DNA from: an uncultured Methylomirabilota bacterium
GTDB lineage: Bacteria; Methylomirabilota; Methylomirabilia; Methylomirabilales; 2-02-FULL-66-22
DNA length: 64,000 nucleotides
Assembly (NCBI GenBank): GCA_963845565.1
Contig: CAWJSJ010000005.1
Location: 256,001-320,000 of the forward strand
Reading direction: 5' to 3'
Part shown: one piece after another, positions 10,514 to 62,947 of the stretch
How the letters are laid out: every line of letters starts with the position of its first letter
How positions within the stretch are numbered: the stretch's first letter is position 1
The notes under the pieces: generated by a model
Seen by the model: only the letters and a program-made list of their open reading frames with translations
What the model was told of the DNA's origin: nothing
The model's database searches: none
Translations under genes and position numbers: made by a program

Positions 10514-10607
10514 CTGTGCCTCCTTGTCGGCGGTCTGGGGGACCGCGGGTCGCGCCGGTTGCCGGCGCCGCACTGCTTGGAAGATGGCAGAGAGATATCG
10601 GCTGCGG

Positions 10608-10645
10608 GTTGCATTTGGATGACCTGGCGGTGACGCGACCGTGAA
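10608..10645 (-). promoter_or_regulatory. Pho-box-like array upstream of the hydrolase-GH3 operon
   Basis: Minus-strand TTCAC/GTCAC/GTCAT/GCAAC at 10641/10630/10619/10608. Confidence 0.7.
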
Positions 10646-10807
10646 ATCCTCGGCGCGATCGCGCCTCCAGTCAGTGAATCCACGGCCGCCGTGTGCTTTC
10701 CGCTTGACACTCGCCGCCGCCGTACGGCATCCTCCAGACCGCCTTACTGCGCATGAGTATGGGATCGGGTTCAGGCGGGCTCGGGAGGTCATGGAGGGAA
10801 CAGCGGC

Positions 10808-11930
10808 ATGGCCAAGTTCGTCGGTATCCTGACGTCTGGAGGCGATTGCCCCGGCTTGAACGCTGCGATCCGCGGGGTGGGCAAGGCCGCGCTCGGTTTC
10901 TACGGCATGCAGGTGATCGGGTTTCGCGACGGTTTTCGCGGGTTCATGGAGAACCGCACCATGGAGCTTGACGGCGACATGCTCTCGGGCATTTTGACCC
11001 AGGGCGGCACGATCCTGGGTACCAGCCGGGACAAGCCGCATCGCATGCCGGTTGGCGGGAAGGTCGTCGATGTGACCGACGTGATCGTGGACAACTACCA
11101 CAAGCACCACCTCGACGTGCTGGTGTGTCTGGGCGGCGGCGGGACGCAGAAGAACGCCTATCGGTTGGCGCAGAAGGGCCTGAACATCATCACGTTGCCG
11201 AAGACCATTGATAACGACGTGACTCTGACCGACGTGACGTTCGGTTTCGACACGGCGCTCGGCGTCGCGACGGAGGCCATCGACCGCTTGCACAGCACGG
11301 CGCACAGCCATCACCGGATCATCGTCGTGGAGATCATGGGGAACAAGGTGGGCTGGTTGGCTCTGGGTGCCGGCATCGCCGGCGGCGCCGATGCCATCCT
11401 GATCCCGGAGATTCCGTACGAGGTGGAGCGTGTCGCCGACGCCATCCGTAGCCGCAGCCACCGGGGGAAGCGATTCAGCCTGGTTGCCGTGGCCGAGGGG
11501 GCCATCTCCAGGCAGAAGGTGCACGCCCTGCGCGCGGCAGAGAACAAGGTTGCCAAAGCCAAATCGCGAGCAGATCAAGCCAGCGCCGAGGCCGAATTGA
11601 AGCAGCTCGAAGCCCAACACGCCGGCAACACGATGCGGCTGGCGCGGGAACTGGAAGAGCTCACCGGTCTTGAGTCGCGCGTCACCATCCTGGGTTATCT
11701 CCAGCGCGGCGGGACGCCGTCGGCGGCGGATCGGCTCCTGGCCACTCGCCTGGGAACCGGCGTGTGCGGATCTCATCAAGAAGGGACGGTACGGCGTCAT
11801 GGTGGCGGCGCGTGCGGATGAAACCAGGCCCGTGCCGCTTGAGGAGGTCTCCAGGCGACTGAAGTTCGTCCCGCCCGATCACCCGTGGGTCGCCACGGCG
11901 CGCCGGGTCGGCACGTGTCTGGGGGATTGA
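10808..11930 (+). CDS. pfkA: 6-phosphofructokinase (group III-like), frameshift near 11760
   Basis: [48 protein letters not shown]-terminus ([16 protein letters not shown]...GTCLGD) in another frame; TTGACA at 10704. Confidence 0.9.
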
Positions 11931-12061: not shown

Positions 12062-13672
12062 TCAGCCGGCCGTGGTTTCGCCCCGGCCGGGCGTCTGTGG
12101 CGTGGCTTTCAGGGCTCCGAGGTGTTTGCGCACGGAGCGCCTATCAAACCGCGACCACAGCTTGACCAGGCGGCCGCGGCGCTTGCGGGCGATGTCCCGC
12201 TGGACCTGGATGAGAGCGCCCAACTGGAGGAGCGCCTCGGGGCCGATTTGTTCGCGCTGAACCATCTCCTTGGCCAGATCTTGGATCCTGCCGATCGCGG
12301 TCACCGCGTCTTGGTGTTCCCCTAAGCAGTCCTGGAATCGCACCATGGTTCGGATATAGTTCGCCAGCGGGTCGGCGCCGGAGGCCGGGTCGCCGAAGGC
12401 CTCCCGGAAGAACTCGCTGGCGTACCGCAGGCGTTTGCAGAGAATCCGTAATCGGTGGAGGTCGGCCGCGGGCGTCGTGGGGCCGACGGTTCGCCCGAGG
12501 CGAAGGACCCGCCTCTGGGCTTTTTCGAGGAGCACCGGTCCAATCTCGGCGACGGGAAGGGTGTGGGCGCCAGGATGCGGCCGAGGAGGTGGCGAGGACG
12601 CCAATGCGTCCAGACGACACATCAGTGCCTGAAAGCGCCGGGAGGTCAAGGCTGCCGTAAGGGCTACCCGTGCCGGCTGTCGCCGTCGCACCAGTTCCGC
12701 CGTCAGGAGCGCCGCGATAGCATCCGCCTCTCCTAACCGCTGGGCCTGTTCCCGGAGGTTGAGGATGAAGACGTCGAGGTCTCGCACGGTGCCCAGACGT
12801 TGGGCCACCCAACCGAGGTCTCGGCGCAGGGCGTCGGCCCGTCTGGGGCCGAGGGCGCCGGCAAAGAGCCGAAGAGCAGAGCGCAGCCGTCGGGTGGCCA
12901 CGCGCAGATCGTGGAGGTATTCGGGGTCCTCGCCCTCGATGGTGCCCGCGAGGTTGGCCCGCATCTTCACGGCCTGCTGGCCGATCACCTTCCGGGCCGC
13001 CACCGTCAGCGTGTCGTCGGGGCGCATGCGGAGATGATCCGGCAGGGGAGCGCCGGGTTCCGAAAGGTTCAGCGTCAGGAGTGCCACGCGACAGGTGTCG
13101 CCCGCCGCCGCAGAAAGCCCCAACCGGTCGCGCACATCGGTGATGACCCGGAGGAATGCGTCCGCGTCTCCCCCGACGAGGCGTACGGTGAACAGGCCAA
13201 CGGATCGCGCTCCCTTCGGCCAACCCTCGCGTGGCGGCGCGGCGATGAAGCGCTCGGCCCGAAACAAAAACGCCGCCCCGGAAGAACTTTGGACAGGGGT
13301 TGCCGACACGAGCGACCGAAGCCGGACCAAGGGAAGCAGGAGTCGCCCATCTGCGAGTGTGCTTGCCGGCGGAGGGACCCCGGCGGTGTCGGGGGAAAGG
13401 CTCGGGAAAGGGAAGGTGCCCTCGAAAGGGTCCTGACGCTCCCCCTCGGGGCCCGAGAGATGCCAGACCGTGCCTTGTCCGGTCCGCCGGATGGACAGGC
13501 GGCACCCTCCCCTGGCGAGACGCCCATCTTGGGTCTCCAGGAAGAGGCATTCCTCGCGAAAGACGGCCGGCGGACCGCCGCTATAGCCCACACGTCGGAG
13601 GGACCGGAGCAGCGCCGACGGCGACCTCCCAGCGGGAAGACCGAACCAACTCACGACGTGTCCGCTGTCCAT
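12062..13672 (-). CDS. CHAD-domain (polyphosphate-binding) protein with degenerate CYTH-like N-terminus
   Basis: DPEYLHDLRVATRRLRSAL, LGTVRDLDV, LHRLRILCKRLRY, QDCLGEHQD. Confidence 0.9.
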   Translation of the reverse strand: MDSGHVVSWFGLPAGRSPSALLRSLRRVGYSGGPPAVFREECLFLETQDGRLARGGCRLSIRRTGQGTVWHLSGPEGERQDPFEGTFPFPSLSPDTAGVPPPASTLADGRLLLPLVRLRSLVSATPVQSSSGAAFLFRAERFIAAPPREGWPKGARSVGLFTVRLVGGDADAFLRVITDVRDRLGLSAAAGDTCRVALLTLNLSEPGAPLPDHLRMRPDDTLTVAARKVIGQQAVKMRANLAGTIEGEDPEYLHDLRVATRRLRSALRLFAGALGPRRADALRRDLGWVAQRLGTVRDLDVFILNLREQAQRLGEADAIAALLTAELVRRRQPARVALTAALTSRRFQALMCRLDALASSPPPRPHPGAHTLPVAEIGPVLLEKAQRRVLRLGRTVGPTTPAADLHRLRILCKRLRYASEFFREAFGDPASGADPLANYIRTMVRFQDCLGEHQDAVTAIGRIQDLAKEMVQREQIGPEALLQLGALIQVQRDIARKRRGRLVKLWSRFDRRSVRKHLGALKATPQTPGRGETTAG

Positions 13673-13723
13673 TCCGGTCCGCTCCCTTGGAGCGAGGGGC
13701 CTCGGAGAGATCTCTGCGTGTGG

Positions 13724-14059
13724 TTATGCGTCCGGCGGAATCCGCCCGCTCAGCGATTCCAGCAGAGCCTCGATCCGCCCGAGATCCTTGAGGCGGCCCT
13801 TCTTGGGTTTCAGCTTGAGAGTCTGGATGTCGGCCAACATGGCGGAGAGGGCGGGCGTGTGAGGCAGTACTGGGCGGTCGCCGGACACGCCTTCACCGCT
13901 CAGCGAGTGCGCGAGTCCGACCAACTCGCCGTCCAAACGGTCGAAGAGCGCCGTGCCGATGTTTCTGAGGACCGGTCGGAGCTTTGCGAGTTCCCGGGCG
14001 ACCTGCTGGGCGAGTTCCGGACGGGTGGGCAATTTGGTCCGCTTGGATCGCTTCGCCAT
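13724..14059 (-). CDS. Hypothetical basic helical protein in the tmk-tmk-CHAD operon
   Basis: MAKRSKRTKLPTRPELA...LKLKPKKGRLKDLGRIEALLE; co-oriented, short gaps. Confidence 0.65.
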   Translation of the reverse strand: MAKRSKRTKLPTRPELAQQVARELAKLRPVLRNIGTALFDRLDGELVGLAHSLSGEGVSGDRPVLPHTPALSAMLADIQTLKLKPKKGRLKDLGRIEALLESLSGRIPPDA

Positions 14060-14081
14060 GTCGCGCCGACCGGCCATCGTC

Positions 14082-14885
14082 TTAGACGGCTGGCGCTTTC
14101 CTGGTGCGTCGGCGCGGGGGAGCTTGCGGCGACCCTGACGTGTCGGCGTCCCGGTTGGCCGAGGCATGACGTTCCCTCCTCACCTCTCGCGTTGCGGCGC
14201 GGTCCAGGACGAGTTGAATCCTGCCTTGCAGGTCTCGATCCACCGCGGCAATGGTGCGGTTGGCATTGACGAGCTCAAAGTCGTATTTCTTCTGCATCTT
14301 GAAGAACTCGCTCCGTATTCGCCGCTGATACCGGACGAAACTCTGAAACCAGTCACGACTCAGGCCGCAGTCCATCCCGGACTCCCAGTAATCCAGCTCG
14401 GCGTGGCTTTGAAACGTGCGCTGCACCAGGGTCGGGAGGGATGCCGTCAGGTAGAAGACCGCGTCGGGGACGAGCGCCATGGAATACACCGAGGCGACCC
14501 AATCGGGCTCGGCGCCCCGTACGATGGCTCTGGCCATGAGCGTGTAGATGTAGCGATCCGCCAGGACCACGAAACCGGCGCGCAGGGCCGGCACGATGCG
14601 ATTCTCCAACTGGTCGTAAAAGTCCGTGGCGTAAAAAAGGCCCAGGGTACGCGGACTCAGGATGTTCCCTTCCTTGGCGCGCTCCAGCTCGGCGCCGACG
14701 AGGTCGGAACGCCGCAAACCCGCCTGGGCCACGGCATGCCCCTGCTGCTCCAGCCACTGGCCCAGCAGCGCGATCTGGGTGGAGCGCCCAGACGAGTCGG
14801 GTCCCTCGATCACGATCAAGGTCCCCGAGAGCTTGCTCAGGTCCACCCCGGCCAAGGCCGTGCCGTAGGTGTGCTTGGGAGTCAC
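14082..14885 (-). CDS. Thymidylate-kinase-like protein with variant P-loop (second of a tandem pair)
   Basis: IVIEGPDSSGRSTQ, VLADRYIYT, YWESGMD. Confidence 0.85.
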   Translation of the reverse strand: MTPKHTYGTALAGVDLSKLSGTLIVIEGPDSSGRSTQIALLGQWLEQQGHAVAQAGLRRSDLVGAELERAKEGNILSPRTLGLFYATDFYDQLENRIVPALRAGFVVLADRYIYTLMARAIVRGAEPDWVASVYSMALVPDAVFYLTASLPTLVQRTFQSHAELDYWESGMDCGLSRDWFQSFVRYQRRIRSEFFKMQKKYDFELVNANRTIAAVDRDLQGRIQLVLDRAATREVRRERHASANRDADTSGSPQAPPRRRTRKAPAV

Positions 14886-15568
14886 TGGACGTACCTCTTA
14901 TGGAAGAAGCCCAGGTCGACGCGTTCTTGGACCAAACTCCGGACAATGACCTGCTGGCGGTGCACCGATTGGGTGGCATCCAACACGGTGAACCCGAACT
15001 CATCTACCATCTTCAGGTACTCGTCGAGGACCCGCTTCTGAAAGATTCGGAAACTCTCCGTGATGTCGGGGCTCAAGTCCAGGTCCATGCCGGCTTCAAA
15101 AAACTTGAGCTGGGGCCGTCCTTCCAGGATCCGGCCCAGGGCCACGTCGAGGGGAAGCTTGAAGAAGAGCGTGAGATCCGGCATCCTGGCGAATCCGTAC
15201 ATCTTCCTCAACCACCCTCGGTCGCAGCCGCGCACGGCGTCCCGGGCGAAGGCCGTGAAGATGTACCGATCGCACAGGACCAGGTATCCCGCCCGGAGGA
15301 GAGGCAGGATCTGACGCTCGTACCGGTCGGCGAAGTCCGTGGCGTGGATGAGGCTGAAGGTGGTCGGGGTGAGAAGTTGCCGTTTCTTCCCCTTGCGCGT
15401 GGCTTCCCGGACCAGGACCGACGAGTTCCACTCGGAGAAGAACACCCGGTGTCCCTTCCCGAGCAGCCACTGGTGCACCAGGTGGATCTGGGTGGACTTC
15501 CCCGACCCGTCGAGGCCCTCGACGGCGATGAGCTTGCCGGGAAGCTTCTCGTCTCGCTCCAACGTCAT
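14882..15568 (-). CDS. Thymidylate-kinase-like protein (first of a tandem pair)
   Basis: IAVEGLDGSGKSTQ, SEWNSS, VLCDRYIFTAFARD, FEAGMD. Confidence 0.88.
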   Translation of the reverse strand: MTLERDEKLPGKLIAVEGLDGSGKSTQIHLVHQWLLGKGHRVFFSEWNSSVLVREATRKGKKRQLLTPTTFSLIHATDFADRYERQILPLLRAGYLVLCDRYIFTAFARDAVRGCDRGWLRKMYGFARMPDLTLFFKLPLDVALGRILEGRPQLKFFEAGMDLDLSPDITESFRIFQKRVLDEYLKMVDEFGFTVLDATQSVHRQQVIVRSLVQERVDLGFFHKRYVQ

Positions 15569-15679
15569 GCGATCTCCCCTAAGCGGACCCGGATGGCGTC
15601 TACATCGACACGGACTTTTCTACTACGTCCCGCGGCCGTTTGCAAGCCGCTCTCTCTTTGGATTTTTGGCCATTATTGC

Positions 15680-17011
15680 TCAGAGGATGTTGGCGGCCAA
15701 CTCGGCGAGCTCGGACCGCTCACCCTTGATGAGCTCGATGTGCGCCGCGATCGCCTTGTCCCTGAATTTCGAAATGATGTGGGTGAATCCGCTGGAGGCA
15801 AAGTCAAGATAAGGTGTATCTATCTGAGATAGATCTCCGGTAAAGCAGATCTTCGTGCCCGGTCCGACACGGGTCAAAATCGTCTTTGCCTCCAATGGCG
15901 TTAGGTTCTGCGCCTCATCGATCACGATGAATTGCCCCGCGAGACTCCGCCCGCGAATGTAGCTCAGCGCTTCAACCTCGATCGTCCCATTCCGCATCAA
16001 ATCCGAGGTGCGTTGCCCTCCGTTCCCTCCAAGATCCCCCAGCATGTCCAAGGCATCGTGGATTGGCTGCATCCAGGGGTCGAGCTTCTCTTCGAGCGTG
16101 CCGGGAAGGAAGCCCAGTTCCTTCCCCACGGGAACCGTGGGTCGCGCTATGACCAGGCGGCGGAAATCGCGCGTCCTGGCGACCTGGTGCAGGCCTGCGG
16201 CAACCGCAAGCAGAGTCTTTCCTGTGCCGGCTTTGCCCGAGAGTGTCACCAGCCTGACGTCTTCCGCCAGTAGGGCGTCCAAGGCGTAGTGCTGCTCGCG
16301 GTTCTGCGCCTTGATACCTCCGATCGGTTCCTGCGCACGGAGCGGGACAACGCAGCCGCTAGTCGCGTCGACTCGGGCGAGGAGGCTTTGTTTGGGATTG
16401 GCTGTACTTGTAAGTGTACAGTACTCGTTTGGATGCCGGGGCCCATCGCCATTGAGGGAGAGGATGCCCGAACTTCGGAAGGCCGCGAGAGCATCCGGGG
16501 ATACGGCCAACTCGAACGTGCCGGGATAGAGATCGCCGGTCTTGATGTGATCAGTCTCGTAGTCCTCCGCGCAGAGTCCGAGTGCATCGGCTTTGATGCG
16601 GAGGTTGATGTCCTTCGTGACGAGGATCGTCGGCGTGTCCGGATTCTCGGCTTGAATCTCGCGCGTCAAGTCGACGAGGCGGTCATCCACGCTGCCGCTG
16701 TCATTCGCCGGTCGCCCGCCGTTCCGAGGTGGAAGAACGACCTGGAGGCGACCTCCATTCGGAAGCGGAACGCCATCGCTCAGGCGGCCGAGTTTCCGGA
16801 AACCATCCAGGAGCCTGGACACGGTTCGCGCATGGGCTCCGCGGTCGCTCGATTCCCGCTTGAATTTGTCGATCTCCTCCAGGACCTCGATTGGGATGAT
16901 GACCGTATTGTCCTGGAAATCGAGAAGCGAATATGGATTGTGGACGAGGACATTTGTGTCGCAGAGGTATAGCTTGGGTCGATTGACCAGCGTCATCGCG
17001 TCCCTCAACAC
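15680..17011 (-). CDS. phoH: PIN-PhoH (PhoH2) ATPase/RNase
   Basis: YLCDTNVL, LVTKDINLRIKA, GKAGTGKT, LGFLPGTLEEK, YIRGRS, DEAQN, TGD..QID. Confidence 0.93.
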   Translation of the reverse strand: MLRDAMTLVNRPKLYLCDTNVLVHNPYSLLDFQDNTVIIPIEVLEEIDKFKRESSDRGAHARTVSRLLDGFRKLGRLSDGVPLPNGGRLQVVLPPRNGGRPANDSGSVDDRLVDLTREIQAENPDTPTILVTKDINLRIKADALGLCAEDYETDHIKTGDLYPGTFELAVSPDALAAFRSSGILSLNGDGPRHPNEYCTLTSTANPKQSLLARVDATSGCVVPLRAQEPIGGIKAQNREQHYALDALLAEDVRLVTLSGKAGTGKTLLAVAAGLHQVARTRDFRRLVIARPTVPVGKELGFLPGTLEEKLDPWMQPIHDALDMLGDLGGNGGQRTSDLMRNGTIEVEALSYIRGRSLAGQFIVIDEAQNLTPLEAKTILTRVGPGTKICFTGDLSQIDTPYLDFASSGFTHIISKFRDKAIAAHIELIKGERSELAELAANIL

Positions 17012-17260
17012 ATTAGACGAGGTTAGGGTGTGCGGACCGCCCGCGCGCAGCAGTGTAACACTGCGGCAAGATCTTCGCCCGGTAACGCTGTCTGCGGATC
17101 TGTGGCGGTTTAACCTGTATTCTCGGTGGGTTGTCGGGTGTGACGTTTAGTGCGCGGTCGCCGTTTGTGTCCGGAACGTAGTTTCTTATCAAGGTATCGC
17201 TGCTGCCTCCCTGTATGGGGATGAGGGTAGAATCATCCTGTCACCATTACCCTGTTTCAG

Positions 17261-17298
17261 GTGTCCAATAGGTGACAAATCGGTGGCAAAACGATGAA
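17261..17298 (-). promoter_or_regulatory. Pho-box-like array upstream of phoH
   Basis: Minus-strand TTCAT/GCCAC/GTCAC/GACAC at 17294/17283/17272/17261. Confidence 0.6.
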
Positions 17299-17498
17299 AT
17301 GTCTCAGGATCTTGGTCCGCTGCCGCGAACCGAGGGGCGTGGGCACTGGATCACCTAGTGGGGCCTGAAGAAGGAGCGGTGGCAGAATGACAGAGCCTGC
17401 CGGACCGCCGAGCGGTGGCGGTTGCGCGGATCCGGCGGGAGTGCGGCAGTTCCCAACCGACGCCATGGTTCGGTCGAAACCTGGACGCCCGTCATCGG

Positions 17499-17792
17499 TC
17501 ATCTCGCGCTTGGTTTCGCCCCGACCTGGGAAGTGTCGTGACCGATCGTGACGGGAATATCGGGACGTGCCGTGCGCCACGACAACCGGATGTCAACGGC
17601 GCAGTCCTCGTGTCTCTCGTGTGCCTCGATCTCCAACTGCAGGGTCTCGAATACCCGTGGCGCGGGTTGCCGATCCCAGACCGGGATGCTGACGCGATTC
17701 CGGAGGAGGCCGCGTGCCAGCTCACTGAGGTAGAAAGCGGCCTCGTCCTTGCTGATGGTCGAGAGGAGCTTGACCTTTGCCGTGCCAGCCAT
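17499..17792 (-). CDS. Amphi-Trp domain-like small protein
   Basis: 97 aa; SKDEAAFYLSELARGL...LQLEIEA...VDIRLSW pattern; Pho-like repeats at 17884-17910. Confidence 0.7.
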   Translation of the reverse strand: MAGTAKVKLLSTISKDEAAFYLSELARGLLRNRVSIPVWDRQPAPRVFETLQLEIEAHERHEDCAVDIRLSWRTARPDIPVTIGHDTSQVGAKPSAR

Positions 17793-49178: not shown

Positions 49179-50073
49179 ATGAAAAGGGCCAGCCCCGGCC
49201 AGTCCATGCTCGCCCCATACCTGTTCCTCGCGCCGAACGTGGTGATGTTCGTGATCTTCATCATCGTCCCGGCAGGCTACAACTTCTATCTCGAGCCTGT
49301 ACCGCACGTCGCCCTTTCGGCCGCCGGCGTTCGTCGGCGCGGACAATTTCCGGTACCTCCTCCAGCAGGACGATCTCTTCTGGCGCGCGGTCTGGAACAT
49401 CGGCGTGTTCGTGGTCGGGGACGTGACGCTGATGACGGGCTTGTCCGTGCTGGTCGGCGTGCTGTTGAACCAGAACGTCCGGTTTCGCGGGTTCTTCCGG
49501 AGCGCCTTCTTCTACCCGGTGCTCCTGTCGCCGTGGTCGTGGCCCTCGTCTGGCAGTGGATCCTGAACAGCCAGTTCGGCGTGCTGAACGCGATCCTCCA
49601 GGGCCTCGGGCTCCCGCGGCAGCCCTGGCTGCTCCGGGCGGACTGGGCCATGTTCTGGGCGATCTTCGTCCACGTGTGGGCCACGCTGGGCTTCTTCGCG
49701 ATGATCGTGCTCGCGGGGCTGCAGGCGATCCCCGCCGCCCTGTACGAGGCCGCCCAGATCGACGGCGCCGGCCGGTGGGAGACCTTCCGCCACGTGACGG
49801 TGCCCATGCTCATGCCGACCTTGATGGTGGTCCTGATCCTCGGCATGATCCGCAGCTTCGAGGTCTTCGACCACATCTACGTGCTGACCGGCGGCGGACC
49901 GGCACGGCGACGCTTCTGATCGTCCAATTCATCTACCGCTCGGCGTTCCAGCTGGACCAGTCGGGGCTCGCGGCCGCGGCGTCGGTGGTGCTGTTCGTGG
50001 TCATCTTCACGCTGACGGTCGCCCAGTACCTGCTCGGCCGCTGGCGGGAGACGATCTCGCTGGACGACCTTGA
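49179..50073 (+). CDS. Carbohydrate ABC permease, several frameshifts (end approximate)
   Basis: PYLFLAP, FRSAFFYP, LAGLQAIP..LYEAAQIDGA, FDHIYVLTGGGP spread over frames. Confidence 0.8.
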
Positions 50074-50948
50074 GCGATGCCGTCACCTTGGGACCATTGC
50101 CCGGTCCCCGCCTCGGTCGCGGCCGCGGCGAACGAGTGGACCAGGCACGGTCGGCGTACGGCTGCCTCGTGCTCGGCGCGGCGGTGATGTTCCGGCCGGT
50201 GCTGTGGATGGTGCTGTCGTCGTTCAAGGACCTGAGCGAGATCTACCGGTTCCCGCCTACCTTCCTGCCGGAGCACTGGATCCTCACGGAACTACCCGAG
50301 GCGCTCCGAGCGGTTCCCGTTCCTGCGGTACCTGGCGAACAGCGTGACGGTGACGGTGGTGGCCACCGCGATCACGCTCGACGATCAACTCGATGGCGGC
50401 CTTCGCGTTGAGCAAGTACCGCTTCCGCGGCCGGGACGCCATCTTCCTGGTGATCCTCGGCACCCTGATGATCCCGCTGCAGGTCATCATGCTGCCGGTG
50501 TACCTGGTGATCGCCAAGCTCGGGATGGCGAACACGCTCTGGGGGATCATCATCCCGCCGGCGGCGACGCCCACCGGGGTGTTCCGCTCGGCAGTACATG
50601 CTGACGCTGCCCGACGAGCTGCTCGAAGCGGCGCGTATGGACGGCGCGGGGGAATTCGGTATTTACTGGCAAATGATTCTGCCGCTGACCGCACCGGCGC
50701 TGGCGGTGCTCACCGTGTTCTCGATCATGTGGCGCTGGAACGATTTTCTCTGGCCCCTGATCGTGATCAACCAGGACCGGCTGTTCACGCTGCAGCTCGG
50801 CCTGGCGCGATTCCGGGGGGAGTTGGTCACCGACTGGCACTACGTCTTCGCCATGACCGTGCTCTCCATCGTGCCCATCACGCTGGTCTTCGCCGTGCTC
50901 CAGCGATACCTCGTGAGCGGCATCGCGGCCACCGGGCTGAAAGGCTGA
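50070..50948 (+). CDS. Carbohydrate ABC permease, several frameshifts (start approximate)
   Basis: WMVLSSFK, AAFALSKYRFRGR, LPDELLEAARMDGA, WNDFLWPL. Confidence 0.8.
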
Positions 50949-50962
50949 GGAGGAGGATCAGG

Positions 50963-51969
50963 GTGCGCGCCACAGGCCTGCTCTTTCCCGAGATCAATCG
51001 CACTGCGTGGGAAGAATTCGAGGTTCCCGAGACGCCCGCCGCCCACGGCGCGGCTGTCCACTCGATCTGCAGCCTGGTGAGCCCGGGCACCGAGCTGGCG
51101 ATCTACACCGGGGCGCACATGGGGTTCAGCCTGCCCGAGCCGCCGTTCCCGCTCATCCCGCACCGGCCGGGCTATGCGCTGATCGGCGAGGTGGAGGCCG
51201 TGGGGTCGGCGGTGCAGGGAGTCGCGGTGGGGCAGCGCGTACTCATGGAGGCCGGTCACGGTACGGTGGGGGTGGCCGACACCCGGACGCACGCGGTCGT
51301 TCCCGTTCCGGCAGGAGTCCCCTCGGCCTACGCACCGCTGGCACGTATGGCGGGGATCGCCTTCACGGCCCTGCGGCTCGCGCCGCCGCACTCGGCGACC
51401 AGGTCGTCGTGATGGGGCTGGGGCTGGTCGGGTTGCTCGCCGGCCAGCTCTTTCGCCTCGCCGGGGGGCGCCCGGTGCTGGGAGTCGATCGGTTGCCCTC
51501 TCGGCTGAAGCTGGCCGAGGCGCTCGGCATCGTCCCCGTGGACACCTCTCGGGAGGAGCTGCTCCCGGCATTGCGGCGGGCGGTCGGATCGCGCGGTGCG
51601 GACATCGTCGTCGAGGCCACTGGCAGCCCGGCCCTGGTTCCGCCGGCCCTCGACAGCGCACGACAGGGGGGCTCCGTCGTGCTCCTCGGTTCCACCCGCG
51701 GGCTAGTGACCCTCGACGCGTACAGCTTGCTCCATCGGAAGGCCGTGCGCGTCGTCGGCGGCCACGAGACGGCGCTCCCCTTCAGTAGCGGTCATGCCTG
51801 GCCGCGCCTCCGCAACCTTGGTCTCGCACTGGATCTGATGGCCGCCGGCGACCTCCGCACGGACGGAATGGTCACCGACGAGCTGACCGTCGCGCAGGCC
51901 CTGAAAGCCCACGACATGTTGCGAGAGAACCCGGAGGCGCACCTCGGGGTGGTGATCCACTGGCGGTGA
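50963..51969 (+). CDS. Zinc-binding alcohol dehydrogenase family protein, frameshift near 51390
   Basis: SLVSPGTE, PGYALIGEV; GLGLVGLLA, DIVVEATG. Confidence 0.82.
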
Positions 51970-53191: not shown

Positions 53192-53218
53192 TTAACGCCT
53201 TTGTCACGGCGCGCTAAC
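53192..53218 (+). promoter_or_regulatory. Pho-box-like array upstream of the 812-aa gene
   Basis: TTAAC/GTCAC/CTAAC at 53192/53203/53214. Confidence 0.6.
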
Positions 53219-53297
53219 ACTTGCACGCTCAAATACGCGTGGCAATTCGGGACAGAGCTCGCCTAGTCGCGAACCCGGGAGATTGGCGGGAGGACGG

Positions 53298-55736
53298 ATG
53301 GGAGACGACGCGTTCGATGTGGCGCCCGGACGGCATCCCGTATCGGCGCAGGCGGCGCTGACGATCCTCGGCGTCCGCGGGAATGACGCCACGCATCTGC
53401 TGCAGGCGCTGCCATTCTCGCGGGACGACGCCACGGCGGGAGTCGAGAACGAGCTCCAGGCGGTCGTGCTGGGGGGCACGGGGGATGTGGATTTGCCCTG
53501 CACTATCCGCGAGTCCAATTACTACGCCAACTGCGTCAAGCGGCGCGCGGCAGGCACCATCGGACGCCAGGGCATTCGCGGGTTGGAGCGCTACCTCGAC
53601 CAGAACCCGGACGGCGTGTGGGAGAACAGTTGGGTCCGATTTCCGGCGCGGGTCCTCAGTCCCACCGCGCGGGACACGCTGGATTTCGACCTGCTGGCCG
53701 ACAAGACCAATCCCGGCCAGGGGCAGCGGGACGATGCCGGTCGCTTCTTCTTCCACGCCGCGGGGGAAGAGTGGATTCGCGTTCCGATCAGTTACCTCCT
53801 CAAGCTGTCGCTGGCGGACGTCCTGGGCTCCGGCCCCGGTGTGTCCGCGACGATTCAGCAGGCCGGACGCGGGCTTCTCGATCACTTCTCCAACGACAAC
53901 ACCTCGCCGGAGATCCAGTCCTTTTTTGTCATTCCTCTCTCTGCCGCCGGCGGCATGGGGAAGGCGGTGGCGCGCGAGACGGCCAAGCGCTTCCTTCTGA
54001 CGCAGCTCCTGACGTCCTACGCGAATCTCAAATTCGAGTTGGCCGCCCGCGGCCAGCGGGCCTTGGTGTATTTCGCACCCCATCCGCCCGTCCGCCAGCG
54101 GGAGCTGAACGATTGCGTGGCCGACGCGTTCTACCGGGACCTCTTCATGAGTCCCTGCCTTTCCGGGTGGAGCTGCGGGGAAGCCAAGCAGCAATACATG
54201 CACATGTGCCACCGGGTCTTGAGCCGGAGCCAGCTCAACGCCGTGGCGAAGCTTCGCGAAGCCGGCATCATCGTGAATGACCTGATCGTGCTTCCGACCA
54301 CGTCCAACATCAGCCTGGCCAACAACGGGACGCACGTCAGTCTGGGCAGCACCATGCTCTCCCGCGCCCTGGGTGAGGCCGGGCGTGGTTTCACGCCCGC
54401 CCACGAGAAACTGCTCGGGGATCTGGCGATCAAAATGGTCGAGCACTTCCTTCCGCTCTTCGTCGGAACCTACACCGCCGATCCCTACCGCTTGGCGTTC
54501 TCGGACTTTCACCCGGAACGCGTCCTGGGATACCTCCCCCACGAGCTGGATTACACGCACCTTCGCATGCTCTGGCAGCGGTGGCGCAAGAAGGCCAAGC
54601 TGCGCGTCCTGGGTCGTCCGCTGACGCCGTTTGGCCCGCGATGGATTGACGACCTGTTGGCGCGCGTGTTCCGCCTCCGGGGCGACCTGGTTACGGATTT
54701 CCGGCTGCTGGACTATCTGGTGGCGCTGATGAGCACGGATCGGAGTCCGGGACTCGATGGCCGCCTCGGAAACTGGGACCGCCTGAAAAAGGATCTCGCC
54801 GACCTGGGGGTGTTTGACGGCCGGATGGCGATGTATGTCCCCTACCGGCTCCGGGAGCACGCCCGTGTGGGTTTCTCGGGGTTCGAAGGCCGTTACTACA
54901 GCCAGTTCGACGGTTTCGCGCAGGACCTGGGGCAGGCGGTCAATCTGCAACTGCTCGTGACCGCCCTGGCGTTCAAGTATATGGCGCAGGGACGGTTCGA
55001 CCACGCCGATATCCCCGACGATCCGACCCTGGAGAGCGAGCGCCGGCAACTCTTCTTTGCGACGGCGATCGGAGTGCCCAGCGTCTTCGTGCATGTGAAT
55101 ACGCGTAACCGGTTTCTCCGGGCGATCCTGGAGCGAGCCAAGGGGGTGCGGGCGAGCCGGCGCCACGCGGGGTACCTGCGGGTGCGGACGCGAGAGTATC
55201 AACGCGCCCTGCTGCGAATCCTTCGATCGGATGCGGCGGACCTCGCGGAGGCCTTGGGCCTGGAGTCCACGCTTGACGACCTGGCGCTCCGGCTGGAATA
55301 CCCCGAGGAACGCTCCGCTGCGGGCCGGTTGACCCGCGGCATTCTCGACAAGGCGGGCGCGGCCTCGGCCCTCGGCCTCGACGCGCGGGAGTTCAACCTC
55401 TGCGCCGAGTCGCACTACCGCGAGGATCTCCGTCGGCGACAGATGGCAGAAGCGCTGGAAGTGCTGGCGGAGGACCTCCGGATGCTTGACCGCCGGGCGG
55501 TCGCCGTCGGCCAGGCGGGGGGCCTGCGCGCGGCGGCCGGCGAGCGAGGCGGCGCCGCGTTTGTGGCCGGAGTTCGCGACGACATCCTGCGGGAGCGAGC
55601 GTCCCTGGAGGACGTGCAGCGCCTGGTCGCACTGCTGGTGCTCAGCGTTCACCATGACACGAAAGAGGCGGAGCGACATCTTCATGCGCCGACACCCGTG
55701 GCGGCCTCTGCGCCATCAATATATCGAGCGGCATAG
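53298..55736 (+). CDS. Large uncharacterised protein; putative glutamate-cysteine-ligase / GS-fold carboxylate-amine ligase
   Basis: Long ORF, GGAGG RBS; motifs TAGVENELQ, NNGTHVSLG, GFEGRYYS in the order of the ExE, H, E-x-R motifs; function inferred. Confidence 0.75.
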   Translation: MGDDAFDVAPGRHPVSAQAALTILGVRGNDATHLLQALPFSRDDATAGVENELQAVVLGGTGDVDLPCTIRESNYYANCVKRRAAGTIGRQGIRGLERYLDQNPDGVWENSWVRFPARVLSPTARDTLDFDLLADKTNPGQGQRDDAGRFFFHAAGEEWIRVPISYLLKLSLADVLGSGPGVSATIQQAGRGLLDHFSNDNTSPEIQSFFVIPLSAAGGMGKAVARETAKRFLLTQLLTSYANLKFELAARGQRALVYFAPHPPVRQRELNDCVADAFYRDLFMSPCLSGWSCGEAKQQYMHMCHRVLSRSQLNAVAKLREAGIIVNDLIVLPTTSNISLANNGTHVSLGSTMLSRALGEAGRGFTPAHEKLLGDLAIKMVEHFLPLFVGTYTADPYRLAFSDFHPERVLGYLPHELDYTHLRMLWQRWRKKAKLRVLGRPLTPFGPRWIDDLLARVFRLRGDLVTDFRLLDYLVALMSTDRSPGLDGRLGNWDRLKKDLADLGVFDGRMAMYVPYRLREHARVGFSGFEGRYYSQFDGFAQDLGQAVNLQLLVTALAFKYMAQGRFDHADIPDDPTLESERRQLFFATAIGVPSVFVHVNTRNRFLRAILERAKGVRASRRHAGYLRVRTREYQRALLRILRSDAADLAEALGLESTLDDLALRLEYPEERSAAGRLTRGILDKAGAASALGLDAREFNLCAESHYREDLRRRQMAEALEVLAEDLRMLDRRAVAVGQAGGLRAAAGERGGAAFVAGVRDDILRERASLEDVQRLVALLVLSVHHDTKEAERHLHAPTPVAASAPSIYRAA

Positions 55737-56715
55737 CGCCGCAGTCCGGACCGAGCGTCTGTACGGCGACCGGATCGTCTCCTTTCTCTACGCCGACCTC
55801 TGGGAGAAGGGACCGGCGCTCTATTCGCTGCTCACGGCGACCTGGACGTCGCGCCTGCTCGGTTTTCTCAACTACGATTCCCTGCTGGGGGCGAGGGCTG
55901 GAGGGACGGGGGAGTTTTTGAAGCGGAGCGGCGTGGACCTCGGCGAGTGTCTGGAAGCGCCCGACCGTCTCGATACGGCCCGCAAGCTGTTCGAGCGCCA
56001 GATCCGCTATTGGGACTGCCGCCCCATGCCGGACCAGCCCGACATCGCCGTCTGTCCCGCCGACGCCCGGGTCTTGGTAGGCTCGCTGAGCGAGGTGTCG
56101 AGCCTGTACCTCAAGGACAAGTTTTTCGACCTGGAGGAACTGCTGGGAAGAGACCGGCGGTCGTGGTGCCGGGTGTTCGAGGCGGGAGACTTCGCCATTC
56201 TGCGTCTGACGCCGGAGAAGTACCACTACACCCACGTGCCCGTGGCTGGACGCGTGGCGACCATCTACGAGATCCCGGGCCGGTACCATTCCTGCAACCC
56301 GGGCGCAGTGGTGGCGGTGGTCACCCCACACTCCAAGAACCGGCGCGTGGTGACGATCCTCGATACGGACGTGCCCGGCGGATCGGAGGTCGGGGCGGTG
56401 GCGATGATCGAGGTGGCGGCCCTGATGATCGGCGACATTGCGCAGTGCTACAGTGCCGAGCACTATCGGACGCCACAGTCGGCGGCACCCGGGATGTTCC
56501 TGCGGAAAGGGGCGCCCAAGAGCTTGTTCCGGCCGGGCGGCAGCACGGTGGTGCTGCTCTTCGAGCCTGGGCGCGTGGTCTTCGCCGAGGACATCGTCCG
56601 CAACATGTCGCGGGCGGGCGTCGAGAGCCGCTTCGCGGCCGGGTTCGGGCGACCGTTGGTGGAGACGGACGTGATGGTGCGCTCCCCGCTGGCCCGGGCC
56701 GCGCGCCGTCGGTAG
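55684..56715 (+). CDS. Phosphatidylserine decarboxylase family protein
   Basis: FERQI, CPADARV, RLTPEKYHYTH.PV.G, NRRVV, EVAALMIG, PGGSTVVLLF (pyruvoyl cleavage site). Confidence 0.88.
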   Translation: MRRHPWRPLRHQYIERHSAAVRTERLYGDRIVSFLYADLWEKGPALYSLLTATWTSRLLGFLNYDSLLGARAGGTGEFLKRSGVDLGECLEAPDRLDTARKLFERQIRYWDCRPMPDQPDIAVCPADARVLVGSLSEVSSLYLKDKFFDLEELLGRDRRSWCRVFEAGDFAILRLTPEKYHYTHVPVAGRVATIYEIPGRYHSCNPGAVVAVVTPHSKNRRVVTILDTDVPGGSEVGAVAMIEVAALMIGDIAQCYSAEHYRTPQSAAPGMFLRKGAPKSLFRPGGSTVVLLFEPGRVVFAEDIVRNMSRAGVESRFAAGFGRPLVETDVMVRSPLARAARRR

Positions 56716-56753
56716 GCCGGGAGACGCGGCGACGCACCGACAGGAGGCTCGTC

Positions 56754-57806
56754 ATGGTCAACGATCTGTTCCTCTTCGTGGTGGCGGCCCTTTCGATCTG
56801 GGTGTTGATCTGGGGGTTCCGCACCCTGCCGCAGGAGCAATGGCAGATTGCGGCGGCGATTCCCGTCGCGAAGACCGCGGCGGGGCAGTGGCAGGGGCTC
56901 AATCTGACCTACTACGGTTTGTTCCATGCCGGCGCCTACGCCGCGGGCGTCGCCATGATGCTGGTTCTGCTGGGGGCGGTGGGGGTCTCGCTCCCCGGTA
57001 TCATCACCATGGTCCTCCTGGTCTTGGGGTGCTGCATTCCTGCGTCGAAATTGGTGGCGCGTGTCGTCGAGCGAAAGGCGGCCACATTCACGGTCGGGGG
57101 GGCGGTGTTCGTCGGGATCCTGGTGTGCCCCTGGTTGCTCTTGGGAGCGAATCGCGCCCTCGGGCCGTTCCTGGGGTTCGAGATCCCCGTGACGGCCGGG
57201 CTGGCGGCGGCGTCCATCGGGTACGCCCTGGCGGAAGGTGTGGGTCGCCTGGCGTGCGTGAGCTTCGGCTGCTGCTACGGCAAGCCCGTGTCTCAGATCT
57301 CGCCTCGCCTCCGCCGACTCTTCGAGCGGTACAGCTTCGTCTTCACGGGACAGACCAAGAAGGTGGCCTACGAGGGAGGTTTGGAAGGTGAGAAGGTCGT
57401 CCCGGTCCAGGCGATCACGGCAGTGCTCTTCGTCACCACGGCGCTCATCGCTGCGGAGGTCTTCCTGCGTGGACACCACCGCACGGCCCTGGGCCTCTCC
57501 TTGGCGGTCACCCAAGGCTGGCGGGCGGTATCCGAAACGCTCCGGGCGGATCATCGTGGAGGCGGCAGGGTCAGCGCGTATCAGGTCATGGCAATCCTGG
57601 CCATCGTGTACCTATTCACGGCGCTGCCATTCATCCCTGCCGGGTCCGGGCTCGAGGCCGACATCCTGACGGGGCTTCGAGTGCTGTGGGATCCGTGGGT
57701 GATTCTCTTTCTGCAGGGTTTGTGCCTCGCCATCTTCCTGCGCACCGGCCGAAGCGTGGTGACCGGGGCGACGCTGTCCTTTCACGTCCGGCGGGACCGA
57801 ATCTAG
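56754..57806 (+). CDS. Lgt (prolipoprotein diacylglyceryl transferase)-like membrane protein
   Basis: Multi-TM; YYGL, TVGG, GRLACVSFGCCYGKP, VPVQ, RAVSETLRAD. Confidence 0.8.
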   Translation: MVNDLFLFVVAALSIWVLIWGFRTLPQEQWQIAAAIPVAKTAAGQWQGLNLTYYGLFHAGAYAAGVAMMLVLLGAVGVSLPGIITMVLLVLGCCIPASKLVARVVERKAATFTVGGAVFVGILVCPWLLLGANRALGPFLGFEIPVTAGLAAASIGYALAEGVGRLACVSFGCCYGKPVSQISPRLRRLFERYSFVFTGQTKKVAYEGGLEGEKVVPVQAITAVLFVTTALIAAEVFLRGHHRTALGLSLAVTQGWRAVSETLRADHRGGGRVSAYQVMAILAIVYLFTALPFIPAGSGLEADILTGLRVLWDPWVILFLQGLCLAIFLRTGRSVVTGATLSFHVRRDRI

Positions 57807-57827
57807 GTCAATGCATCCCCGTCCCGT

Positions 57828-58697
57828 GTGATGTCGTTGCCCATCTCACGCGAAACGCACCCTACGCGCTGGAGCGATCGCGCGCGGCGCGCCCGACGCG
57901 CCGGGATGCTGTTGGGCGCCCTCTTGTCAGGTTGCCTCGAAACCGACCTCGCGCACGCCGATCGGGGATCGCACATCCCCCCGGTCGCGGCGGTCGAAAC
58001 TGGAGAGTACCTGGCCCGCGACGACCGGACCGGGGTGGAACTCTGGCGACATGGCTGGACCATCGAGCGGCACATCCAGCCTGACGGTGCAACCCTCCGG
58101 GTTCACCAGGAAGGACGGGGCCGCCGAGGGCGCTCGGCGCCGACGGCATGGGTCGCCGAGACGCATGTGACGCTCCTCGGCGGTGGTTACCGGCTTTCGT
58201 CTTGGCGCGAGGTCCGCGACGCTCAGGGCGCGCTCGTCGAAACGGAGAAGCGGGATCTGGACTCGACCACGGGCGCCGGTCTGGTCGCCATCCGGGACGC
58301 TCGCTCCTGGCGCACTAGCGTTCGCCGCGTCCACGTGACGCGAGGCTCCGTCGATCTGGAAATGCTTCCGGTGGAATTACGTCTGCTCCCCGGCCGGGCG
58401 GACAAGCGGTTTCGATTCGAGTTGATCATGGCGGGGGGAGAGGTGGTCGGCATGGAGGCCACGATCGTGGGCCGCGAGGTGGTCGAGGCGCCCGCGGGGA
58501 CCTTCGAATGCTACCGCATCGAGCTCACGGCGACCGGGGCCTTGGGCCTCGTGGCAGGTCTCGTGCTTCCCAAGACGACACTGTGGCATACGGTGGCGCC
58601 TCCCCACGTCTGGGTGAAGCACCGGGGCCCCGAGGGAGGCGTGGGTTCTCGGGTGATCATCAGGGAACTGACGCGGTTCGAACGGCAAGCCGAATGA
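57828..58697 (+). CDS. Hypothetical exported beta-rich protein (DUF3108-like C-terminus); start uncertain
   Basis: RR..MLLGALLSGC N-terminus; VGREVVEAPAGTFECYRIE motif. Confidence 0.65.
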   Translation: MMSLPISRETHPTRWSDRARRARRAGMLLGALLSGCLETDLAHADRGSHIPPVAAVETGEYLARDDRTGVELWRHGWTIERHIQPDGATLRVHQEGRGRRGRSAPTAWVAETHVTLLGGGYRLSSWREVRDAQGALVETEKRDLDSTTGAGLVAIRDARSWRTSVRRVHVTRGSVDLEMLPVELRLLPGRADKRFRFELIMAGGEVVGMEATIVGREVVEAPAGTFECYRIELTATGALGLVAGLVLPKTTLWHTVAPPHVWVKHRGPEGGVGSRVIIRELTRFERQAE

Positions 58698-58714: not shown

Positions 58715-58741
58715 GTCACGGAATCTTCACAGGTCCGTCAT
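58715..58741 (+). promoter_or_regulatory. Pho-box-like array upstream of ppx
   Basis: GTCAC/TTCAC/GTCAT at 58715/58726/58737; TAGCAT -10-like element at 58764. Confidence 0.7.
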
Positions 58742-58776: not shown

Positions 58777-59763
58777 ATGACAAGATTGCTCGCTCTCATT
58801 GAGTTGGGATCCAACGCGACCCGCTTGCTGCTCGCGGAAGTGACGATGGGCGCCGGATACCGGGTGCTACAGCAGAAGCGGGTACAGACTCGCCTCGCCG
58901 GCGGCCCGGAGCGCGAACTTCCTCGTCGGGCGGTGCGCGACACCTTGGCGGCGGTGCGGGGCTTCGTCCGCTCGTTTCGCAGCGGGAACGGGGTCAGCAC
59001 GATCGCCGTCGCGACGGCAGCCGTGCGCGACGCCGAGAATCGGGCCACTCTCCTGAATCCCCTGATCCATAAGTACGGTCTCAACGTGGTGGTCCTCAGC
59101 CCGCACGACGAAGCATGCCTCGGGACGCTCGCCGTCCTCCACCATCTGCCGATGCGGGATGGGCTCGTGGCCGACCTGGGAGGCGGGAGCCTCCAGCTCA
59201 CCAGCGTCCGCGCGGGCAGAGTCGAGGACACCGCGAGTCTGCCTATCGGGGCAGTTCGGATGACCGAGCGCTTCCTCCGGGGTGATCCGCCAGCGGCAGC
59301 GGAAGTCAAGGCGCTGCGGTCGGAGGTCCGGGAACGGCTGCATCGGGCGATGCCATTCCTGGAGTGCCGCGGACGCCTGGTTGGCATCGGCGGCACCGTC
59401 CGGGCTTTGGCGAGTTTGCAGCTGGCCGCGCGGACCGACGAGGCGATGCGACATGGACTCCGCCTCAGTCAGGACGACATCGTCGCCGTGCGAGCGCGCG
59501 TGGAGGCGCTACCGTTGAGCCGTCGCCAATGCGTCCCGGGCCTCAGGCCAGAACGAGCCGACATCATCGTGGCCGGGGCCCTCGTCGTCGAGGAATTGGT
59601 CCGGGCGTCGGGATACCCGGAACTTACGGTGTGTACCTTCGGCGTGCGAGACGGTTACCTGATCCGTCGCACCTTTCCCGACTCCTGGCCGCTACATGGC
59701 CCGGCACCCGTGGTCGCCGAGGCAATGGCGGCCGCGGGTTCGGGCGCTCGACGGTGCGCCTAA
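58777..59763 (+). CDS. ppx: Ppx/GppA exopolyphosphatase (short form)
   Basis: IELGSNATRL, VATAAVRDAEN, DLGGGSLQ, GIGGTVR, RADII, GVRDG. Confidence 0.9.
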   Translation: MTRLLALIELGSNATRLLLAEVTMGAGYRVLQQKRVQTRLAGGPERELPRRAVRDTLAAVRGFVRSFRSGNGVSTIAVATAAVRDAENRATLLNPLIHKYGLNVVVLSPHDEACLGTLAVLHHLPMRDGLVADLGGGSLQLTSVRAGRVEDTASLPIGAVRMTERFLRGDPPAAAEVKALRSEVRERLHRAMPFLECRGRLVGIGGTVRALASLQLAARTDEAMRHGLRLSQDDIVAVRARVEALPLSRRQCVPGLRPERADIIVAGALVVEELVRASGYPELTVCTFGVRDGYLIRRTFPDSWPLHGPAPVVAEAMAAAGSGARRCA

Positions 59764-60373: not shown

Positions 60374-60790
60374 TCAAGAAAGCGGGGCGAAGGTCTGGGC
60401 TCCGAGCGGGCTGTCGCATTCGCCACGCACTAACCCCGTGATGATGAGGTCCGCGGTTGCGAGGTTGGTGGCCAGAGGCACGTTGTGCACGTTGCAGACG
60501 CGCATCAGCGCCTGGATGTCGGGATCGTGGGGTTGGGCGGTCAGCGGGTCCACAAAGAAGAAGACCGCGTCGATTTCGTTCGAGCCGACGCGGGCGGCGA
60601 TCTGGACGTCACCGCCCTGCGGGCCGCTGAGCACGGTTTCGACCTCGATTCCCACCTTCTCCTTCAGAAATCGCCCGGTGGTCGCCGTGGCGACGAGGTG
60701 GAAGCGTCGGAGTGTCTCGCGGTTGTACGTCGCCCAGGCGAGCAGGTCCACCTTCTTATGGTCGTGCGACACCAGCGCAAGTGCTTTCAT
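60374..60790 (-). CDS. mgsA: Methylglyoxal synthase
   Basis: ALVSHDHKK, ATATTG, SGPQGGD.QI, DPLTAQPHDPD, PLATN. Confidence 0.95.
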   Translation of the reverse strand: MKALALVSHDHKKVDLLAWATYNRETLRRFHLVATATTGRFLKEKVGIEVETVLSGPQGGDVQIAARVGSNEIDAVFFFVDPLTAQPHDPDIQALMRVCNVHNVPLATNLATADLIITGLVRGECDSPLGAQTFAPLS

Positions 60791-61717: not shown

Positions 61718-62947
61718 TCAGCTCCGCAGACCGGCAGATACGGATTGCCGATAGCTTGACCAGGACGGGATTCCGGCGAGGAGCATGCCGATGACGACCA
61801 CAGCCGCCGCCATGAGCAGTTCTTGGCGGGCGAGCGTCGCGGAAAGAACGATCCCGGTGCGTGCGGAAAAGACCGCAGAGAGCGCCGCGGCTCCTGCCCA
61901 CCCTGCCAACAGGCCCAGCACGGACCCGAGGGCGATCATGAGGCTGACGTGGGTCCACACGACTGCGAACACGTACCGGCGGGACGCCCCGAGGGCTCGG
62001 AGGATGGCGAGTTGCCGGCGCCGCAGGGCCAGCGAGGCCAAGACGGCGAGCAGGACAGCAGCGATGACCAGCGCCTGGGTCGCAACGGAAATGGCCGCCA
62101 GGAGATCGCGGGCGTCTCCGAGGAGACTGTAGAGATCGACCAACACTTCGGCCGGGAAGAGGGCCGTCGTGCCTTCCGTCCGGTATTTCCCGCGGAGCTT
62201 GTACGCGTCCGCGACTGTCTTGGGTTTCACGACGATCGCGGGAACTCCGGCGACCTCGGCACCGTCCCACGGAGGACCAATAACGTTCCGCGCCCTCCGT
62301 GTGGCCGTTGGAGAGACCGTGGACTTCCCAGACCGCTTCTATGGGTGCGACGATGGCGCGATCCCAGGGGGTGCCGGATCGAGCCATGCGACCGACGACG
62401 ACGTACTCGACATCGTGATGGTCTCGATCCGAGGCCTTGTCCTCCGGCTCCGCCTTGGGGGCGGCCACCCCGTGACTGGGGCGAAGCGGGCGCCGAGCGC
62501 CAAGCCGACATCCGCCCCCACGACGACCTCGCGCTCGGATGCAAAGACCCGGCCCTCTGCCGGTTTGCGCGTTCCGCCCAGGGTGACGAAGGCCGCGGTC
62601 GAGCCGACGACGGGATAGTCCCGGTAGCGATCGCCAAAGGCGATGGGGGCCACGTAGACGGCGCCCGACTCTTGTTGGAGGCGTTTGAGCACGGCGCCGG
62701 GCACCAACGGCAGCGCCGCCGGCTGCAGGTAGACGCTGGTCAACACAAGCTGGGTCGGGCTCCCGGGAGCGCCGACGAGAAGGTCGAAGGCGTCGGCGGC
62801 TCGCGCGCTCCCGGTGCGCAGCGCCCGCTCCTGGGCGCTCACCGAGACGCCAAGGGCCACGGCCACGGCGATCAGCCCGACCACCGCCAGGAAGCCGGTC
62901 CGGGATCGCCGGATATCCGCCACCACGACGGGCAAGGGGTTCAACAT
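61718..62947 (-). CDS. FtsX/MacB-like ABC permease, frameshifts near 62470 and 62280
   Basis: FDLLVGAPGSPTQLVL, PIAFGD, GTPWDRAI..PIEAVWEVHG, LAILRALGASR across three frames. Confidence 0.8.

Follow-up and report, generated by a model that had tools for sequence, protein, structure and literature searches.

What product should be expected from a set of genes in which an unnamed ligase, a paralog of the decarboxylase Psd and a relative of the transferase Lgt follow one another behind a Pho-box-like array? The question is raised by genes A, B and C, with gene D after them, in a 64,000-nucleotide stretch of DNA (the window) from an uncultured Methylomirabilota bacterium (assembly GCA_963845565.1, contig CAWJSJ010000005.1, positions 256,001 to 320,000 of the forward strand). 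A first-pass annotation of this DNA had suggested a phosphorus-free lipid pathway, and that suggestion is supported here. A, B and C form a real, conserved, Pho-boxed three-enzyme module which most likely makes a phosphorus-free cysteine thioether lipid; canonical psd and lgt genes lie elsewhere in the genome, and the lipid can be refined to the formula of BACys (N-butyramide cysteine glycerol), a class published in 2024 for which the trio may be the missing genes. The folds, the catalytic motifs, the co-occurrence of the genes, the Pho boxes and the formula match form the established part of this reading.

Folds and catalytic residues of the three enzymes

The earlier description of A as a ligase of the glutamate–cysteine ligase (GCS) type was borne out by structure. 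The protein gave no Pfam match at E ≤ 1, neither PF04262 nor PF04107 included, and no match in NCBIfam or among PDB sequences. Its relatives comprise 2922 clusters matched among 8000 candidates, the best 120 of which (56–78% identity) are all unnamed or ‘hypothetical’, and the Atlas search likewise returned unnamed clusters only. For an AlphaFold (AF2) model with a pLDDT of 93, built on a 118-row alignment, ranks 1–19 of the VIA structural search were all of the glutamine synthetase (GS)/GCS/PafA-Dop fold, with the next unrelated structure at Z 5.5. The closest was GshF (Z 16.5, root-mean-square deviation (rmsd) 4.2 over 398 aligned residues), followed by YbdK (15.8), GshA (15.2–15.3) and Dop/PafA (14.5–14.6). 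Foldseek reached only E 1.3e-3, yet with the same top families. Proteins in the carboxylate-amine ligase superfamily carry GhExE on strand 1, acidic residues on strands 2 and 3, [HD]x[NH] on strand 4, an arginine on strand 5 and Ex[RK]xxD on strand 6 (PMC2588565, accessible text). With motifs put on strands by the secondary structure of the model and by motif order, rather than by residue-level superposition, the A family has GhExE at 48–52 (G48, E50 and E52 in 107/107 rows with the residue present), D200 and E205 (114/114), H346 (118/118), R519 (113/114), E530 (113/115) and R532 (111/113).

A resembles GshA, the N-domain of GshF, YbdK (GCS2) and PafA-Dop in fold (Z 14.5–16.5, rmsd 3.5–4.3 Å over 339–417 residues) and in GhExE, the acidic strand-2/3 residues, the strand-4 histidine, the strand-5 arginine and the strand-6 ExR. 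It differs from them in its 812-residue length with large inserts, in its identity of 9–15%, in HxS and ExRxxS variants of two motifs, and in its partners, which are lipid enzymes rather than gshB or pup. From its fold and motifs, A is very likely an ATP-dependent carboxylate-amine (gamma-glutamyl) ligase of the GCS/GS fold from an unnamed family, with gamma-glutamyl-cysteine or a gamma-glutamyl-amine as its predicted product. No GshA or GCS2 family member was found in the bacterium’s own genome (98.7% complete), so that a dedicated ligase would be needed.

Gene B, already assigned to the Psd family, matches PF02666 at E 6.8e-38 (130.8 bits against a cut-off of 22) and lies below all four NCBIfam psd equivalog cut-offs. 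Its residues D127, H181, H184 and S287 are present in 18 of 18 rows and align with E. coli Psd (7cnw); the Psd triad is D90-H144-S254 (PMC7952604, accessible text). The cleavage motif is GGST, mostly GSST in the family. B thus has the Asp-His-Ser self-cleavage triad and the G-S-T-type site of Psd (PF02666) and PsiD, the latter a soluble amino-acid decarboxylase of the Psd fold and a weaker match. Unlike the canonical enzyme making phosphatidylethanolamine (PE), it has PG(G/S)ST instead of LGST, lacks a pssA partner and is always accompanied by A in the genomes searched. To judge from these residues, B is a decarboxylase of the pyruvoyl type and a paralog of Psd whose catalytic triad is intact.

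For gene C the Pfam LGT score is below its cut-off, as are the equivalog scores; hhalign against one canonical Lgt is weak (probability 2.7), and a C profile searched against PDB sequences did not find Lgt. In the VIA search the C model matched E. coli Lgt (5azc) at Z 12.8 over 228 residues, the next match standing at 6.8, and Foldseek, at an E of only 1.1e-2, gave the same top families, which upholds the view of C as an Lgt-like transferase. Residues G164-R165, R257, E261 and R264, found in 19 of 19 rows, are the equivalents of G142-R143, R239, E243 and R246, so C shares with E. coli Lgt (PDB 5AZB/5AZC; PF01790) both the fold and the R143/R239/E243/R246 network. The roles of the Lgt residues, and the seven helices and periplasmic catalytic face of the canonical enzyme, are described in the accessible text of PMC4728403. 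C departs from Lgt in having nine helices by model and hydropathy, one extra at each end, in the deletion of arm-2 (the peptide-binding region), in a cysteine at N146 and in the H103GGL motif, which in its family reads V-G-G with valine at His103 in 18 of 19 rows. A near-canonical Lgt at another locus (L053, genome G312) shares GCCYG with C, has no His103 equivalent but a normal topology bias, and is possibly a sister type to C; the cysteine motif and the missing histidine are therefore not unique to C.

The charge bias of C is also reversed. Its loops have a lysine-plus-arginine density of 0.164 on the catalytic face and 0.061 on the other, and the catalytic face is the richer in all 128 rows (the query sequence, those of 18 loci and, out of the best 120 matches, the 109 with a length of 335–390 aa), counted with helix limits set by hand and on rows that are related to each other. 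Canonical Lgts show the opposite, 0.03–0.10 against 0.22–0.33, in all 13 sequences taken from carrier genomes, a partial paralog (L057) having been left out. Under the positive-inside rule this reversal strongly predicts that C is an Lgt-fold membrane transferase that is inverted, with its catalytic face in the cytoplasm, whereas that of Lgt is periplasmic. Such an orientation would place the active site where the product of A and ATP are found.

Conservation of the trio and its candidate Pho control

Among 28 related loci drawn from named genomes, A-B-C are adjacent and in order in 17 and split by phoBRU-like genes in one; one more has A-B up to the contig end, two end inside A, five have A alone and two are fragments. 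Four of the five lone-A genomes were tested, and B and C lie together elsewhere in all four. Across 301 genomes from the order of a Desulfosarcina record (G251), counted with kin that are not independent, 83 carry A, 76 B and 78 C, with the complete trio in 75 and no member of it in 218; neither B nor C was ever found without A. Cultured carriers among the listed matches include Citrifermentans bemidjiense (Gbem_1868), Geobacter pickeringii and Desulfosarcina ovata. The synteny check proposed by the first-pass annotation therefore finds the triplet conserved together. In the window’s own phylum A is present in only 2 of 251 genomes, the second of which has the full trio beside phosphonate-type genes; the module is therefore rare there, and this lineage probably acquired it.

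These counts bear on the idea that B and C are spare psd and lgt copies and that the trio serves no separate pathway. Both proteins do belong to those families by profile or fold. However, as had been pointed out, no pssA adjoins the trio; a canonical short psd is paired with pssA on contig C1, and a canonical lgt also lies elsewhere. B and C fall under the equivalog cut-offs, the topology predicted for C is the opposite one, both genes accompany A, and PE production saves no phosphorus, all of which makes this explanation scarcely credible. A different possibility is that C is mainly a cytoplasm-facing enzyme cleaving phosphatidylglycerol (PG), recovering glycerol phosphate and supplying diacylglycerol (DAG), whilst the product of A and B is a soluble thiol or amine. 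The absence of His103 and of the arm-2 region would suit it, Psd-fold enzymes can take soluble amino acids, as the PsiD matches illustrate, and GT4 and OlsF-like lipid genes adjoin A in two of the 28 loci. Since a stand-alone phospholipase would not require A, the fact that C is never seen without A in the 301 genomes argues against it, and we consider it very unlikely.

At the two loci just mentioned the trio is grouped with further phosphorus-free lipid genes: an OlsF-like ornithine-lipid synthase (under its cut-off; L003:4569-6422) stands immediately before A in one, and an 805-aa GT4 fusion (L027:5509-7926) in the other. The bacterium’s own genome yielded no GNAT domain of the OlsB/OlsF type. 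In 4 of the 28 loci a DksA-like gene stands between B and C or comes right behind C, and the same holds for 4 of 4 split B-C loci; the gene may connect the module with the stringent response. At L026:7968-8548 codons 1–150 of A are joined to B fragments, in a deleted and decayed copy of the module.

The array that the first-pass annotation had described ahead of the four co-oriented, overlapping or closely spaced genes was confirmed in its coordinates and its period: upstream of A stand TTAAC (53192), GTCAC (53203) and CTAAC (53214), spaced at exactly 11 bp. Three half-sites were scored genome-wide in every upstream region with a gap of at least 60 bp (n = 3191), with half-site weights set from the Pho-box consensus and fixed before the scan. 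The array before A ranks third of 3191, and seven of the ten top scores fall in the window, including those before ppx, two phosphonate transporters and pstS. In the enrichment check suggested earlier, 18 of 27 loci have a Pho array upstream of A at a shuffle p ≤ 0.05, against a control list that is impure (many entries are Pho genes or share A’s intergenic region); the genome-wide rank is the control on which we rely. A pst, phoU, phoH or phn gene lies within 8 kb of the trio in 12 of the 28 loci. The window is, as claimed, dominated by Pho genes, a Pho island with a phoB/phoR-like pair (best matches PhoB and PnpS/PhoR, slightly below cut-offs), two pstSCAB sets, phoU, phoH, phnWX, a phosphonate ATP-binding cassette (ABC) system and ppx. 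The 11-bp-periodic box thus puts the trio in a candidate Pho regulon. Neither a sigma-70 promoter match nor a convincing terminator was found at the locus. RNA-library contigs from four runs give patchy cover of the whole 20-kb stretch, a pattern that cannot reveal transcription, strand, level or induction. The unit likely ends after D, because the downstream ppx has a Pho box of its own.

Gene D has a weaker claim to the unit. It matches PF11306 at E 1.6e-4, under the cut-off (Atlas 0.92–0.93), and would be an exported DUF3108-like protein. It is absent from 28 of 28 related trio loci and follows C in two close metagenome loci; of the four-gene operon first proposed, A-B-C stand as the conserved core and D is a lineage-specific add-on outside it. 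D carries a lipobox-like LSGC motif, and could therefore be thought of as the target of C in a scheme of protein or peptide modification, in which a PafA/Dop-like ligase works with a dedicated Lgt that lipidates a protein. The Z scores of PafA/Dop against A favour such a scheme. As a substrate of C, D was rejected: it occurs in 0/28 related loci, and its cysteine is kept in only 4 of 8 aligned proteins. Apart from the DksA-like gene, no conserved small ORF (open reading frame) was seen near the trio among ORFs of at least 70 aa, an inverted C would face away from exported lipoboxes, and B would be left without a role. Protein modification is accordingly most improbable.

A predicted route to a cysteine thioether lipid

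Psd enzymes need a free alpha-amino acid for Schiff base formation, and Lgt needs a thiol. If A makes gamma-glutamyl-cysteine, the thiol is that of cysteine and the sole free alpha-amino acid is the glutamyl unit, and the product is therefore 4-aminobutyryl-cysteine S-linked to DAG. In the route that we propose, A would join the gamma-carboxyl of glutamate to cysteine at the expense of ATP. The cytoplasm-facing C would then move the whole diacyl- or dialkyl-glyceryl unit from PG to the cysteine thiol, and glycerol phosphate would be freed within the cell so that its phosphorus could be used again. Finally, B would strip the alpha-carboxyl from the gamma-glutamyl unit, which alone is still a free alpha-amino acid, although B might act before rather than after C. 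The end product would be S-(diradylglyceryl)-N-(4-aminobutyryl)-cysteine, a zwitterion of the BACys class that could stand in for PE. We infer the substrates, the linkage, PG as the donor and the order of the steps.

BACys lipids were described from phosphate-starved Desulfatibacillum alkenivorans PF2803, where they rise from less than 1% to about 65% of lipids at low phosphate and yield a head fragment C7H13O3N2S+ (205.064) on DAG, AEG and DEG cores; the accessible text of that paper assigns no genes to them (PMC11181052). Decarboxylated gamma-glutamyl-cysteine is C7H14N2O3S, and its computed RS+ of 205.0641 equals the BACys head fragment. The predicted product fits 11 of the 11 BACys-DAG rows entered, and the undecarboxylated form fits none; the comparison was not blind, as the lipid class was known when the pathway was derived. 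From 16 BACys rows, three hydroxylated ones, one duplicate and one with two extra hydrogens, not explained by plain DAG, were left out. The presence of BACys on ether cores also fits the transfer of an intact glycerol core. The lipids of D. alkenivorans thus resemble the predicted product in being phosphorus-free, confined to limitation by inorganic phosphate (Pi) and of the same elemental formula (PMC11181052, accessible text). They are a lipid class with a tentative structure and not a gene system, and their link to the trio is a proposed one.

Several points weigh against the assignment. For A, hhalign gave no significant match to single sequences of GshA and YbdK, the motifs of strands 4 and 6 end in serine (S348 and S535; HxS, ExRxxS), a partial departure from the superfamily, and the closeness of A to PafA/Dop, nearly that to GshA, means that the fold does not name the amine acceptor. 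C would work without His103, the proposed thiol base of Lgt, and its inversion rests on the hand-set helix limits and related rows described above. The structure of BACys is itself tentative, from tandem mass spectrometry (MS2) only (PMC11181052, accessible text), and since gamma-glutamyl-cysteamine-S-DAG and an ester-linked isomer share its formula, the match cannot separate them. Desulfatibacillum does not appear among the best 120 of 1240 matches to the Desulfosarcina C protein or in the A listings, which is no evidence of absence, and only 83 of the 301 genomes of the related order have A, a frequency that counts against taking the trio for granted in the BACys producer.

The same uncertainty about substrates leaves room for another phosphorus-free lipid from the same three enzymes. 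C could form S-DAG-cysteine, B could convert this to S-DAG-cysteamine, a closer analogue of the step from phosphatidylserine (PS) to PE, and A could gamma-glutamylate the amine; another thiol or amino acid might also serve. S-DAG-cysteine resembles PS, the substrate of B’s family, the product would be a BACys isomer that the formula fits equally well, and the fold of A leaves its substrates unfixed. On the other side, the sole matching published lipid that we found was assigned, tentatively and by MS2, to butyramide plus cysteine (PMC11181052, accessible text). We regard this variant as unlikely.

For the reading that leads to BACys, our confidence differs between its parts. It is high for the trio making some phosphorus-free aminolipid. 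Taken as a whole, a PhoB-switched, cytoplasm-facing route swapping phospholipid for a phosphorus-free zwitterionic lipid of the BACys class is on balance probable, and we lean almost as firmly towards BACys itself as the product. The most detailed version, a full BACys route in which a membrane-flipped Lgt puts the thioether head on diradylglycerol and recycles PG phosphorus in the cytoplasm, with a gamma-glutamyl dipeptide head trimmed by Psd, is favoured by a little.

The Pho island and the place of the trio among lipid systems

The features of the locus are collected in Table 1.

Table 1. Positions of the genes and Pho boxes in the window, and of the DksA-like gene in related loci
Feature	Position	Strand	Remarks
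Pho-box-like array	53192..53218	+	3 half-sites, 11-bp period, ~106 bp 5′ of A start
Gene A	53298-55736	+	812 aa
Gene B	55684-56715	+	343 aa; 53-bp overlap with A
Gene C	56754-57806	+	350 aa; 38-bp gap after B
Gene D	57828/57831-58697	+	21-bp gap after C
Second Pho box	58715..58741	+	before ppx (58777-59763; ppx by family match); rank 1/3191; likely marks end of A-D unit
DksA-like gene	L002:12494-12886, L012:11429-11833, L025:4186-4587, L037-L040 (about 2200-2960)		

Other genes of the window also carry marks of phosphate control. On the minus strand, a Pho-boxed run at 12062-17792 comprises a small unknown gene, phoH, two thymidylate-kinase-like genes and a CHAD protein, and is probably linked to polyphosphate. 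At 60374-60790 (minus strand) a methylglyoxal synthase has a Pho-box-like site, rank 14/3191, which fits Pi release from dihydroxyacetone phosphate. At 8175-11800, again on the minus strand, the Pho island contains a GH3-family acyl-amido synthetase and an alpha/beta-hydrolase fusion, which stand just upstream of a phosphonate ABC gene and may belong to a further pathway for a lipid or an amide. The sugar ABC, dehydrogenase and permease genes at 49179-51969 and 62230-62620 look frameshifted; single-base indels set related contigs apart at 50960, 51389, 62282 and 62480, and some of the breaks may therefore be assembly errors.

Phospholipid replacement under PhoB control is a known kind of system, for which the chemistry of the trio is not known. 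OlsBA/OlsF, BtaAB, PlcP-Agt and SqdBX acylate amino acids or glycosylate or alkylate DAG, a chemistry unlike that of the trio, and to our knowledge no phospholipid-replacement system uses Lgt, a GCS-fold ligase or Psd. What these Pho-regulated systems share with the trio is the exchange of phospholipid for a phosphorus-free lipid and control by a Pho box (aminolipid review, PMC11631085, accessible text). A literature search, its coverage largely outside subscription journals, brought up no account of the trio or of genes for BACys.

If the proposed pathway is true, the trio would be a new chemical route among phosphorus-sparing lipid systems, and would provide a concrete, testable set of genes for BACys, an orphan lipid class that reaches about 65% of lipids when its sulfate-reducing producer is starved of phosphate (PMC11181052, accessible text). 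An Lgt fold would then be seen to act from the cytoplasmic side on a small molecule, and a so far unnamed family, with at least 2922 protein clusters, would gain a function. All three genes occur in 75 of the 301 genomes searched from one large anaerobic order, about a quarter, and patchily in other phyla; they could mark phosphorus stress in anoxic sediments.

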